Assembly: GCA_048886185.1 (NCBI GenBank)
Contig: JBHLKY010000001.1
Location: forward strand, 150,001 to 182,000
Source: Candidatus Hermodarchaeota archaeon
Lineage (GTDB): Archaea > Asgardarchaeota > Heimdallarchaeia > Hodarchaeales > Hodarchaeaceae
Length of the DNA: 32,000 bases
Direction: 5' to 3'
In this document: positions 22,824 through 27,249 of the stretch, one piece after another
Layout of the letters: each line of letters opens with the position of its first letter
Position numbering within the stretch: position 1 is the stretch's first letter
The notes under the pieces: generated by a model
Told to the model about the DNA's origin: nothing
Database searches by the model: none
Seen by the model: only the letters and a program-made list of their open reading frames with translations
Translations under genes and position numbers: made by a program

Positions 22824-23645
22824 GTGAATACAGATGACATTATAAAGGTTGCACTTGACCTAGTGAACATGAATGATCTACCTGCTGACTCAGCCATCTA
22901 TGTTCCTGGAGAAGGCATTTCAAAGGTGCTTTACGGAATAGATATTGGGGCAACTGAGTTGCTTTACGCCAAAAAGCATGAATACGACGCTGTGATCGCA
23001 CACCACCCTGTAGGCGTGGTAAATCAGTTTAAAGTTTTCTATAGACATATGGAACAGTTGGTTTCAAAAGGTGTACCTAAAGAAATAGCTCAAAAGGTCG
23101 TGGATAAGAAGATTCTCGGGCTTAAATTTGGTATACATGCACATAATTATGAAATGATCCCCTCTTTTGCACGATTAATTGGAATTCCTTTTCTTAACAT
23201 TCATTGTCCTTCAGATGAGCTAGGTAGAAGGCTGATAACTACTTCAATAAAAGAATTGGTGGAAAAGAAAGAGAATCCTCTTTTAAGCGAAGTTAAAGCG
23301 CACCTAGAATCTTCTTTTCCAGAATTTCGTGAAGCTCAAACCGTAATTGAGATTGCTAAAGGAAATGGTGACAGTCCACTAGGGAATTGGATTTTTAGTC
23401 ATGGGGCGCTTACTAATGGAGGTTTTAAGATTGCCGAATGCTATTTTCAGCATGATGTTGATACAGTTATCTATATACATATAGCACCGGCTGAATTATT
23501 TCAGATATTAAATTTAAACAGTGGGCAGCTTCTTATTACTGGACATTTAGCTTCTGATTCAATTGGAATTAATCCCTTCTTAGATCGATTAGAAGAAAAT
23601 GGGATTCAAATTACAGCTATTGGTGGATTAATACGTTCGAAGTGA
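22824..23645 (+). CDS. NIF3/DUF34-like dinuclear metal-binding protein
   Basis: KVLYGIDI, DAVIAHHP, NIHCPSDE, GHLASDSIG metal-ligand pattern. Confidence 0.72.
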   Translation: MNTDDIIKVALDLVNMNDLPADSAIYVPGEGISKVLYGIDIGATELLYAKKHEYDAVIAHHPVGVVNQFKVFYRHMEQLVSKGVPKEIAQKVVDKKILGLKFGIHAHNYEMIPSFARLIGIPFLNIHCPSDELGRRLITTSIKELVEKKENPLLSEVKAHLESSFPEFREAQTVIEIAKGNGDSPLGNWIFSHGALTNGGFKIAECYFQHDVDTVIYIHIAPAELFQILNLNSGQLLITGHLASDSIGINPFLDRLEENGIQITAIGGLIRSK

Positions 23646-23658
23646 GAGTAGTACAATT

Positions 23659-24138
23659 ATGGAGGATTTCCCAGTGCGACTTCAAGAATATATTAATGAC
23701 AATGGACTAAATGCAGAAATAATCTCATTACAAACTTCAACAAGAACTGTAGATGAAAGTGTAAACGCATTAGGTTGTGAACCAGAAGAAATAATAAAAA
23801 CAATCATTGTTGTTACTAATACAAATGAATTTATTTTGGTTATTCTTCAAGGAAATCGCAAAATAAAGACTAGAAAAGTTAAAAAATTATTAAATGTAAA
23901 GGATGTTAAACTTGCTTCACCAAAACAAGTTGAAAAAGAAACAGGGTATAAAGTGGGGGATGTTCCTCCTATCAGCATAAATCTGCCAGTTATATTAGAT
24001 GAACTTGTCTTAGAAATGTCAAGAGATTCAAAATTATATGGAGGTGGAGGTTCTTCATCGAAACTTATTTCAATTTCTGTTGATGAGCTTCTAGATTGTA
24101 CTCATCCTCTTATTGCTGATGTTACGACCCCAATATAA
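23659..24138 (+). CDS. YbaK/EbsC-family aminoacyl-tRNA deacylase
   Basis: EIIKTIIV, VKLASPKQVEKETGYKVGDVPP, YGGGG. Confidence 0.9.
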   Translation: MEDFPVRLQEYINDNGLNAEIISLQTSTRTVDESVNALGCEPEEIIKTIIVVTNTNEFILVILQGNRKIKTRKVKKLLNVKDVKLASPKQVEKETGYKVGDVPPISINLPVILDELVLEMSRDSKLYGGGGSSSKLISISVDELLDCTHPLIADVTTPI

Positions 24139-24204
24139 AGGAGGATCATGAATTGAGAATTTAATGTCTGATTTTCTTGACTATTCTTTATTTCATACAC
24201 TAAA

Positions 24205-24384
24205 TTAATGTAATTTATATTTGTGAGCTCGCTGTATCCCCATATGAGTCATTAGATTGATGATCTGATGAAATTTAAGTTTTTTTATGCTCTCTTCCCT
24301 TTCTTGTAGGATCAATTCTGTGAAATATTCTTTCATAGCTGGTACGAGATCATGAACCACGTTTGAATTCGGGTTTCTAATCAT
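24205..24384 (-). CDS. 59-aa microprotein paralogous to the C-terminus of the upstream tandem-longin protein
   Basis: Below the ORF-track size cutoff. MIRNPNSNVVHDLVPAMKEYFTELILQEREESIKKLKFHQIINLMTHMGIQRAHKYKLH; 28/51 identical with no gaps to the segment encoded at 24440..24592. Confidence 0.72.
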   Translation of the reverse strand: MIRNPNSNVVHDLVPAMKEYFTELILQEREESIKKLKFHQIINLMTHMGIQRAHKYKLH

Positions 24385-24592
24385 TTAGGGGTCAACAGAT
24401 GATGGTTTCGCCTTATTCGAAATATTATTCCTTTTTCTGAGGCAATCTATATGCTCTTGCTCGTCTGATGCCCATTTGTGTATAATAATTGATAACACGG
24501 TGAAATTCTAACCTTTTTAATTTCTCTCGTTGGCCCTGAATTGATAAATCAATGAAATATTCTTTCATTGCAGGAGCCAAATCATGAGCAAC
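24208..24592 (-). repeat. Diverged tandem duplication of 153 nt (24440..24592 and 24208..24360), period 232 nt
   Basis: Both copies contain atgaaagaatatttca on the minus strand and align codon for codon without indels. Confidence 0.85.
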
Positions 24593-25459
24593 TTCAATAG
24601 GTATTTTGTTCCATTTTCTCAGAAATTTTTGTAATTTTAAGAGTTTTCGGGGATTATTAATCACAAATACGTTTTCTTCAGTTGTTATGAAATCCATTGC
24701 TTGCATAGATTGAGCTCCAAACACAAGACGAGCGGGAAAGGCTTCAAAAAGCAACTGACAATAGTTCACAATAACAGCTGAAAATGCACTTATGAGGGCT
24801 GAATCTAGCGGAGAATCATACTCTAAATGGATTGGTACTCCTGCACTTGAGTGAATGACTCCCCAAGGACGAGACGGTGTTAATGTTGAAAAATGAGTTT
24901 CGAACAGCTCTCTCAACAAGGCATGAAAAAACAGCAATTCTTCAAAACTTAATGCAGAGAAGGAACATTCACCATTCCCCACTGTTACATTTTCATTATA
25001 GGTTACTGCATTTATTGCTTCTTGGAAAAGCTGATCTACGATGTTTTTATCATGATTATTTTCTTCTTGTGAGTAAAATTGTGAATAGATGACTGAAGCA
25101 CCCCCTGCAAGAATACTCCTCATTTCATCCCAAGGAGCAGTTTCTAATTCTATTCGACTCATTAGTCTTGTCGTGACAAGAGGGTCAGAAATAACAATGC
25201 TGAATCTCTTCAATTTACTAGATAGATTTACAATCATAATTTCTCGTGCTTGACTTGGGTGAGGACGAGGATATCTTAACCTTACAATTCCAATTCCCTG
25301 ACCCCACAATTCTGCTCCTAATCTACTGACAGATCTCACGAAATCGAGTGTTTGTTCAAGCTTATCTTGGTTGAGATCACCAAAATGCCATTTCACTTCG
25401 TTTTCACTAGTTAGAATTGCCCAATTATTGAGATATAAACGACGCTGATTAGTAATCAT
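24425..25459 (-). CDS. Putative tandem longin-like domain protein
   Basis: Two segments with a beta-beta-alpha-beta-beta-beta-alpha pattern: NWAILTSENEVKWHF/LDFVRSVSRLGAELW/IGIVRL/EIMIVNL/FSIVISD and WGVIHSSAGVPIHLEY/DSALISAFSAVIVNY/ARLVFG/MDFIT/VFVIN. Start at ATG 25459 with GGAG 11 nt upstream (track start 25498). Confidence 0.6.
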   Translation of the reverse strand: MITNQRRLYLNNWAILTSENEVKWHFGDLNQDKLEQTLDFVRSVSRLGAELWGQGIGIVRLRYPRPHPSQAREIMIVNLSSKLKRFSIVISDPLVTTRLMSRIELETAPWDEMRSILAGGASVIYSQFYSQEENNHDKNIVDQLFQEAINAVTYNENVTVGNGECSFSALSFEELLFFHALLRELFETHFSTLTPSRPWGVIHSSAGVPIHLEYDSPLDSALISAFSAVIVNYCQLLFEAFPARLVFGAQSMQAMDFITTEENVFVINNPRKLLKLQKFLRKWNKIPIEVAHDLAPAMKEYFIDLSIQGQREKLKRLEFHRVINYYTQMGIRRARAYRLPQKKE

Positions 25460-25618
25460 TATAGAATGTTCTCCATGTCTGTTTTTTCTAATGTTCAATC
25501 GTTATCTTTAGTACTTCAATGAGGGGACTAAAAAGGATTTATTTATTAATTATGTAAAATGTAAATAGTAAATTTTCGCAGAATGTTTAGAATTATTTTG
25601 TTGCTTTCAATCTTTTTA

Positions 25619-26896
25619 TTAAGACAGAAATAATATATCATATATTAAGGTGCCATAATAATTTTCAGTTTCAATTATGGTGATTTGCAGTAAATCCATT
25701 GCAGCTTTTTTTCCAACTATCTTAGATAGATTATGTAAAAGTGAGTCCAAAAATGGGAGGAATGCGTTTTGAAAAAGTGGTGTCATTATTTGTGGGCGAG
25801 TATTTAATACAGCTTCTAATTTTTCAAAATATAAGCCTTTCATATAATTTTCTACAAGCTTAGCAATAGTTATTATCCTTCCTTTGTTTTTTGCCCGTTC
25901 TAGCTCATGATTAAATATTGTCTCAAAGATTGTGAAAGTGAAATTTTCTCCAAACATTTTAACCAGTTGGAGGCGAAATAACTTTAGAAATTCTTCAAAA
26001 ACAATTAGTAATAAACCAGAATCAGACAAGAGGCTGATATAACCACTAATTGACAGATATCGAAATAGTTGGATCATCCTCATTTTTTCTTGTGTTGTTA
26101 AATTCGCAGAGAGAGACTTAATTGAATGTCTTCCATCAATTTTTTGAGTAATCTTAATTCCCCATTCTCCCCAATGTTTAAAAATTGTCTGATAGGCCAT
26201 TCCTTGTTCTAATATGATACCGATATGAGCTTTTTCGATTTTAAAAATATCAGTGTTTTTTATTGCAATATCCACTGATTTTAAGTATCCTATCTCTTTT
26301 AATATTGCTGTTCTAGCAATACAATATTCTAATGGCCAATTAATTTTGCGAGAGATTTCTATAATAGCTAATTTCCCATCAAATAATTCCAATAGGGGTT
26401 TGTACTTAGATGGGATCTCTATTCCTCTATTTTTATAAGCTTCATCTTTTATTTGTTTGAAAATAAGGTTCTCATCTAAATGAGATAGCATAAATTTTCG
26501 AGTTAATTCACGAAAAGGAATGTATCTCTGGGTTTGTATATTTTGTTCTTTGATTTCCTTTAAATAATTAAATTCGAAAATATCAATGATTGCTCTAATT
26601 TTTTCCATTAAAATTTGACTTTCATTATCTACTACTAAAATAGCTTCGATTTCTTGACCACGTTCAAACATTATTTTCTTTCCTTCCCTTTCAATCACAT
26701 TTAATGTTCCACTCTCGCTTGATATATTATCCATCATACTATCAGAAAATGTCGAAATAGCATTTACCAATCCTCCTAAAATAATGGAATCAGTACGAGG
26801 AGCATAACTACTAAATTTAATGTCAAAAATTGTCAAACCAGAGATGTTTAACAAAAAATAAATGAGACCAGCTTTATCTAGGGATTCATTACTCAT
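25619..26896 (-). CDS. Longin domain plus two putative winged-helix domains
   Basis: N-terminus FLLNISGLTIF...DSIILGGLVNAISTFSDSM...LNVIEREGKKIMFERG..IEAILVVD fits the Asgard longin pattern; LELFDGKLAIIEISRK...LKEIGYL and QKIDGRHSIKSLS...LSISGYI are wHTH-like. Confidence 0.72.
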   Translation of the reverse strand: MSNESLDKAGLIYFLLNISGLTIFDIKFSSYAPRTDSIILGGLVNAISTFSDSMMDNISSESGTLNVIEREGKKIMFERGQEIEAILVVDNESQILMEKIRAIIDIFEFNYLKEIKEQNIQTQRYIPFRELTRKFMLSHLDENLIFKQIKDEAYKNRGIEIPSKYKPLLELFDGKLAIIEISRKINWPLEYCIARTAILKEIGYLKSVDIAIKNTDIFKIEKAHIGIILEQGMAYQTIFKHWGEWGIKITQKIDGRHSIKSLSANLTTQEKMRMIQLFRYLSISGYISLLSDSGLLLIVFEEFLKLFRLQLVKMFGENFTFTIFETIFNHELERAKNKGRIITIAKLVENYMKGLYFEKLEAVLNTRPQIMTPLFQNAFLPFLDSLLHNLSKIVGKKAAMDLLQITIIETENYYGTLIYDILFLS

Positions 26897-27249
26897 TTTG
26901 GTGCATCATCCAATTTGACGGGACTTGCGGGTTTTTTTGCTTTAGTTTTCAGCTCATCAAAAAATACTGAAATCTTCCATAATCCAAAGAAAACAAACCC
27001 AAATCCTATACTAATCAATACAAGAAAAACTAATTGTACTAAAGGATTCCAAATTGGATCCTGATAGTTTAAAATTGAGATAATTGTTTGAGAAAGCAAA
27101 CCACATGAAATAAAAAATGCTCCTAGGCTAATAATCTTATTACTGGTTCCAAAAATTCCTTCTAACCGAAATTGTTTAGCAGTTGTAACAAGACTAATCA
27201 TCATGCAGCATCCATAAAGCATACCACGAATAATGTCATATTCTTGCAT
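26893..27249 (-). CDS. Small 3-TM membrane protein of unknown function
   Basis: 118 aa with three hydrophobic segments and a charged tail; ATGA overlap with the longin-wHTH gene. Confidence 0.75.
   Translation of the reverse strand: MQEYDIIRGMLYGCCMMISLVTTAKQFRLEGIFGTSNKIISLGAFFISCGLLSQTIISILNYQDPIWNPLVQLVFLVLISIGFGFVFFGLWKISVFFDELKTKAKKPASPVKLDDAPK

Follow-up and report, generated by a model that had tools for sequence, protein, structure and literature searches.

The locus studied here raises the question of what a very short open reading frame really is when it lies beside a much longer gene whose 3' end it resembles: a separate peptide, a copy of its neighbour's tail, or what is left of another gene. 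The window, i.e., the whole stretch of 32,000 nucleotides that was analysed, contains the following elements of this puzzle:

24205-24384, minus strand: 59-aa mini ORF (P0001), interpreted below as the start codon and about 7 codons of a lost paralog, B, fused to its last 52 codons and stop
24425-25498, minus strand: parent gene (paralog A), 357 aa from a TTG or 344 aa from the ATG at 25459, with two predicted Roadblock/longin-like domains and a C-terminal helical hairpin
24440-24592, minus strand: C-terminal module of A (residues 303-353), modelled by AlphaFold2 as a long helix followed by a short one, where contact with the mini is predicted

The mini ORF opens with an ATG located 40 nt past the parent stop codon (24425-24427, minus strand; the gap spans 24385-24424), in a frame that differs from that of the parent. 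When mini residues 9-59 are aligned without gaps to parent residues 303-353 (357-aa numbering), 28/51 are identical, and 13 of the 26 non-Met codons among these 28 carry a synonymous change, with neither stop nor indel. The initial annotation of this DNA, made from the sequence alone, had given this position and these figures, and all of them are reproduced. The resemblance is far beyond chance (BLASTP, 28/50 identities, E 2e-19). At the nucleotide level, it runs from mini codon 9 to codon 58, and no similarity is seen 5' of codon 9 or 3' of codon 58. In agreement with the lack of a strong ribosome-binding site remarked on earlier, no Shine-Dalgarno motif is found 5' of the mini ATG, within the 24368-24424 flank. 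A Pfam scan of the mini, the parent and an upstream 425-aa protein gives no significant family, and an Rfam scan of both strands of 23600-25600 (E<=1) gives no match. The family members on record are hypothetical proteins of Heimdallarchaeota, Hodarchaeota or Promethearchaeota MAGs, which bears out the Asgard host initially proposed.

The parent gene gives the frame in which the mini has to be understood. Its longest ORF starts at the TTG at 25498, but the ATG at 25459 (MITNQRRLYLNNW) is the one used by gene callers and found in orthologs, with a GGAG 16-13 nt upstream, and the 344-aa form is likely to be the real parent protein. The AlphaFold2 model of the parent, built from 27 family members (mean pLDDT 88.2, pTM 0.83), contains a pair of Roadblock/longin-type alpha/beta domains, together with a helical linker and, at the C terminus, a hairpin; in the 344-aa numbering, this hairpin comprises a helix at 288-315 and another at 319-328, followed by a low-confidence tail. 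The best Foldseek matches of the parent are subunits of Fuzzy/Inturned, BLOC-3 and Mon1-Ccz1 (E 4e-5 to 1e-2, with a whole-chain TM of about 0.2), and the probability reaches 0.94-0.99 against Roadblock3 of Prometheoarchaeum (MK-D1). With VIA-align, parent residues 6-123 and 194-300 match Roadblock, MglB, TRAPP and Mon1 longin domains with modest Z scores (3.6-6.5). These modelled structures support, at the fold level only, a parent carrying the Roadblock/longin-like fold twice, the scores being modest and Pfam giving no match; the "tandem longin" label of the initial annotation thus stands as a description of the fold but has no Pfam support. In the model, the module shared by mini and parent is the C-terminal helical hairpin and not a longin domain. 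A profile of this module finds nothing below E 0.07 among PDB sequences, and the parent family is small, with 63 representative clusters among 1.84 billion.

The parent resembles tri-longin Rab GEFs (Mon1-Ccz1, Fuzzy-Inturned, BLOC-3/HPS1-HPS4), MglB and Ragulator in its Roadblock/longin-like alpha/beta domains. It differs from the tri-longin Rab GEFs, which have three longin domains per subunit, in having two domains, a helical linker and a C-terminal hairpin, and no counterpart of this hairpin is detected. Three more full-length paralogs of the family are encoded in the same genome (C5:72297-73283, C11:150798-151784 and C17:16542-17495); they are 28-29% identical to the parent and align over nearly all of it, to residue 340-354 of 357. 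A 244-aa database protein (P0007) shares 87% identity with the parent in its first 175 residues and then runs into unrelated sequence; it probably comes from a chimeric contig, or else from a copy rearranged in another assembly.

To place the mini within this family, two further elements of the window are needed:

23659-24138, plus strand: tRNA_edit (YbaK-like) gene, convergent, a synteny anchor: in 20 relatives of the genus it lies beside the 3' end of B, or of the only family gene present
24205-24367, minus strand: segment orthologous to the 3' end of B, with 78-80% nucleotide identity to the genes of genomes G010 (G010_B), G008 (G008_B), G014 and G017 (G017_B), and about 92% to a contig of sequencing run X5

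When the mini is searched against 61 genomes of the genus and class, its best matches are the last 52 or so residues of full-length open frames of 351-394 aa, with 77-88% identity, as compared with 55% for the adjacent parent. The locus was compared in 20 genomes of the same genus, and in every one of them where the flank is recovered a family gene adjoins tRNA_edit, as it does in the window. In G010, a complete genome, and in G015, full-length A and B genes stand in tandem, among the same tRNA_edit, NIF3 and acyl-CoA synthetase neighbours. The parent is 82% (G010) and 73% (G015) identical to their A orthologs, versus 65 and 61% to their B genes, and it is the 3' end of B that faces tRNA_edit. 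In trees, the N-terminal part of the proteins (275 columns) separates a clade A (95/93), which includes the parent, from a clade B (100/98), and the 50-aa module places the mini inside clade B (94/95), as sister to G017_B with a short branch (0.049). The mini therefore corresponds to the orthologous tail of B rather than to a duplicate of the adjacent parent's tail, as had been claimed. The other part of the initial proposal, that of a truncated paralog retaining just the C-terminal module of an Asgard protein with two Roadblock/longin domains, is upheld, and this module is predicted to serve in protein-protein contact. From these sequence comparisons, we consider the derivation of the mini from B, in this lineage specifically, as settled.

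The mini has no counterpart as a stand-alone ORF, either in the 61 genomes or among 5.8e9 proteins. In this protein collection, the eight longer proteins carrying a mini-like module are all full-length (330-349 aa), and the only proteins of similar length are the window's own and a 93-aa fragment located on a 957-nt contig. A scan of JGI metagenomes with the mini gave 303 pattern matches, none of which was confirmed. A search for the same arrangement of parent plus mini in other Asgard genomes had been proposed as a check, and what the 61 genomes give is the module at the ends of full-length proteins only. Furthermore, no other copy of B is present in the mini's own assembly, which is 96% complete.

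Reduction to one copy recurs at this locus. G008 retains full-length B only, and a single family gene lies beside tRNA_edit both in G003, where it groups with A, and in G012, where it falls outside both clades. G014 also has a single gene, a hybrid (P0070, L040:2552-3733) that adjoins tRNA_edit: its N-terminal 300 or so residues are of clade A, including the A-specific NKTQK insert, its last 37 or so are of B type (ELILQEREESIKKLKFHQIINLMTHMGI), and the switch occurs just past the conserved HDLAPAMKDYF. This protein, which is recorded from two sources, looks like an A/B fusion generated by recombination of the tandem paralogs.

The locus varies in other ways too. In G017 (L039:3089-5967), A and B are convergent instead of tandem, B being on the strand of tRNA_edit, which points to an inversion at the locus. 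An ORF of 54-68 aa with a C-terminal CxxC pair (KCKRCGKEI or KCQRCGKEI), possibly a zinc ribbon judging from this motif, lies between B and tRNA_edit in G010 (L009:1678-1842) and G008 (L013:1696-1902); the window has just 66 nt at this place (24139-24204) and no such ORF. On the other side of A, the window carries, between this gene and an N6-methyltransferase gene, the genes for the 425-aa protein mentioned above (P0003) and for a 118-aa membrane protein (25619-27249, minus strand). In G017, G015 and G003, unlike in the window, the A ortholog directly follows the methyltransferase ortholog, and the gene pair looks like a lineage-specific insertion.

How B came to be reduced to its tail can be approached at the nucleotide level through a close relative, whose contigs give a precise position to the breakpoint:

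24364-24367, minus strand: deletion junction, a TTCA common to the left- and right-flank contigs of the relative (4-nt microhomology), with the right breakpoint at 24367|24368
24368-24424, minus strand: left flank of the deletion, comprising the 40-nt spacer past the A stop, the ATG and the first codons (MIRNPN), probably the start region of B

Contigs of four other runs (X5-X8) were placed on 23600-25600, with the parent partly uncovered over about 24409-24853. The relative in run X5, from an estuary sample of another study, shows 92-97% nucleotide identity to the window over tRNA_edit, the mini region and the 5' half of A. One of its contigs, of 584 nt, matches window positions 23818-24367 at about 92%, beyond which come 35 nt that differ from the window. 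Once reverse-complemented, this loose end is identical to G017_B at 27/30 positions of the equivalent site, and in the frame of the mini it reads KFQRRWKKIP running into SNVVHDL, a B-type stretch of the kind found ahead of the module in every full-length B protein. In the same run, a further contig spans 24364-24408 and departs from the window beyond that, so that both flanks overlap on TTCA. As the relative has B sequence upstream of the breakpoint, the interior of B was lost in the window lineage after its split from the X5 relative. The initial annotation had itself mentioned a remnant 3' end of a deleted full-length paralog as an alternative to a functional peptide, and this is what the locus contains: a relative 92-97% identical keeps B sequence 5' of the breakpoint, and no stand-alone copy is found. 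Another X5 contig joins 24667 to 25148 with 486 other letters in between, and may represent the relative's B gene or a paralog from another organism; the argument makes no use of it.

On the left side of the junction, the mini begins with ATG ATT AGA AAC where A begins with ATG ATT ACT AAT (ATGATTAGAAAC versus ATGATTACTAAT in A), and the N-x-S before the junction is similar to the N-x-(S/T)-S found ahead of RRLYLNNW in B proteins. Local alignment of the left breakpoint to G010, G008, G017 and G015 gives weak scores (24-29) and no usable homology. We infer from these resemblances that the ATG of the mini is probably the native start of B and that the deletion was probably in frame.

All these results point to the following scenario. 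A duplication within this Hodarchaeales genus would have given rise to A and to B, the latter of about 340-350 aa. In the window lineage, a single internal deletion of about 280-290 codons, probably by slippage on the 4-nt repeat TTCA, would have removed both Roadblock/longin-like domains of B and joined its first 7 or so codons in frame to its last 52. The mini would then be a gene remnant of a familiar type, a truncated pseudogene produced by microhomology-mediated deletion: it shares with such remnants a full-length ortholog at the syntenic site, a lineage-specific loss and a 4-nt microhomology. It differs from them in being in frame, with its start codon kept and no decay so far, and could still be translated.

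This absence of decay has to be reconciled with the pattern of substitutions, in which purifying selection on a separate peptide had initially been seen. The synonymous pattern between parent and mini arose while both were full-length genes, and is thus no sign of selection on the small ORF as such. A codon-based comparison (NG86), which had been suggested as a check, answers in part only. The dN between the mini and B orthologs is low (0.07-0.10) and equal to that among full-length B genes (0.05-0.12), but dS is saturated between the mini and every B ortholog of other species, and indeed for nearly all inter-species pairs, so that the method yields no numeric dN/dS for the mini's own branch. 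The low dN of the mini tail is explained by its inheritance from full-length B. Where columns are conserved at 90% or more, a single private change is found in the mini (R46H, at a position where 30/32 other sequences have R), as compared with 0-3 in full-length members. By these sequence measures, the mini appears to show neither decay nor extra constraint, its number of private changes being indistinguishable from that of full-length members.

Neither stops nor frameshifts nor a raised dN, as signs of relaxed constraint, were found in the mini, which is expected if the deletion is recent; no decay is expected because the deletion is younger than the split from the 92-97%-identical relative. 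As a rough estimate, only a handful of neutral substitutions could be expected over 153 nt after the window lineage and the 92%-identical relative separated, provided that the deletion is not much older than the branch average. In the relative of run X6, divergence over the mini region, 14/163 (about 8.6%), is similar to that over tRNA_edit, 11/157 and 12/165 (about 7%). The value over the mini is, again as a rough estimate, below that predicted under full neutrality, which fits a late deletion or some constraint.

Whether the mini could nevertheless act on the parent depends on the properties of the hairpin that it retains. When parent and mini are modelled as a complex, ipSAE is 0.65, the best of 3 controls reaching 0.00; this mark is attained by 58/80 solved complexes and by 2/110 mismatched pairs. 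Agreement between runs is at least 61% for contacts, and the pLDDT of the partner reaches at least 61. The modelled interface brings mini residues 14-58 against residues 270-333 of the parent (344-aa form), i.e., the C-terminal helices of A itself. According to this model, members of the family may pair tail to tail through the hairpin, and a fragment such as the mini could occupy the tail of A. The pairing expected from the initial annotation is thus predicted, with a reservation as to its meaning, as close cousins of a true partner also pass in such models and a pass is independent of expression. The result may simply reflect the mini being a close cousin of the true tail-tail partner.

Several explanations of the mini can be weighed against these data. 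The one that we favour, with good but incomplete confidence, is that the mini is a recent remnant of full-length paralog B, left by an internal deletion and without a selected function of its own; taken separately, the absence of a selected function is the most likely reading, in our judgement by a probability of much the same order. That the mini is intact, with a tail that looks selected, is accounted for because this tail was shaped within a full-length protein and the deletion is too recent for decay. The confinement of the mini to one strain lineage and the single-gene loci of G003, G012, G008 and G014 (the hybrid) speak for this reading too. The points that count against a mere remnant include the lack of any stop, frameshift or raised dN, the retention of an ATG and of what appears to be the start region of B, the fact that the module retained is precisely the one modelled against the parent's C-terminal hairpin, and the divergence from the X6 relative, roughly estimated as below neutral expectation. 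Most of these points feed the opposite idea, that of a nascent or functional microprotein, which we regard as unlikely, though worth keeping in mind. The in-frame deletion would have kept the promoter and start of B, and the 59-aa hairpin would pair with that of A, perhaps also with those of the three distant paralogs, competing with tail-tail dimerisation and tuning or poisoning the complex. It is in favour of this idea that binding to the parent tail is predicted, that the reading frame is unbroken and altered at one conserved column only, that its start resembles the true start of A and that AlphaFold2 models the module with confidence as a helical hairpin; truncated paralogs keeping only an interaction domain are, moreover, an existing concept in plants and animals (PMC5381583, PMC9638782). 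But neither the 61 related genomes nor the 5.8e9 proteins hold a conserved stand-alone copy, the deletion postdates the separation from a relative of 92-97% identity, so that intactness weighs little, the one private change replaces a widely kept arginine, and a Shine-Dalgarno motif is lacking. As for the complex model, any close cousin of a genuine tail partner would be expected to succeed in it, and it is silent on expression. The strong form of the idea, a regulator kept by selection, is given a decidedly low probability.

Two simpler explanations would do away with the deletion or with B. The true genome could contain full-length B, the assembler having skipped about 850 nt; the genome is indeed a 75-contig metagenome bin, and A and B have short conserved stretches in common. 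We reject such an assembly artefact, which appears very improbable: the junction has the same sequence in separately assembled Logan contigs from three runs, with 100% identity over 2.2-8.2 kb, and the whole stretch is present in four runs of the source study. No RNA run is listed among those carrying it. Furthermore, the longest exact stretch common to the A and B tails, about 15 nt, is too short to collapse an assembly graph, and the junction does not lie between repeats of more than 4 nt. As for the idea that the parent's own 3' end was duplicated in part and locally, suggested by adjacency and by the 55% identity to the parent tail, it is hardly credible at all; it is ruled out by the closer identity of the mini to the B tails of other species, its placement in clade B, and the B-type coding sequence found upstream of the junction in the close relative.

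The recent remnant that we favour can finally be compared to the microProteins of eukaryotes, such as LITTLE ZIPPER, Id and miP1a/b, which are truncated paralogs keeping only an interaction domain and are established in plants and animals (PMC5381583, PMC9638782). MicroProteins are defined as small (less than about 20 kDa) single-module proteins homologous to one domain of a larger protein. By size and module the mini corresponds to this definition, with its 59 aa and its residues 9-58 homologous to the module of A (55%) and of B (77-88%). It is like them a small single module derived from a larger paralog, with a predicted contact module modelled on a related full-length protein. Known microProteins are conserved as separate genes, with demonstrated expression and effects, whereas the mini is confined to one strain lineage; as an independent gene under purifying selection it finds no support, every relative among the 61 genomes having the module as the terminus of a full-length protein. 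Fragments that a deletion leaves of a gene are objects of an ordinary kind. One attractive but doubtful possibility, for which we would allow a small chance, is that of a microProtein caught at birth: the signals of B would drive a 59-aa hairpin, the dimerisation element of the family according to the models, which would cap the tail of A and alter the assembly of a putative GTPase-regulator platform. The A/B paralog pairs of relatives recall, in a suggestive way only, the heterodimeric partners of multi-longin GTPase regulators; no GTPase gene is seen among the genes flanking the locus.

These results call for caution in the interpretation of small ORFs, a clean synonymous/nonsynonymous pattern against a neighbour being no proof of selection on an ORF that derives recently, as a fragment, from a full-length paralog. 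They also reveal an unstable Hodarchaeales locus, in which, depending on the species, a pair of paralogs with two longin/Roadblock domains has been affected by a deletion, an A/B fusion, an inversion or the loss of one copy. If the fragment is made and binds A, it would constitute a rare natural case of a microProtein originating in an archaeon.
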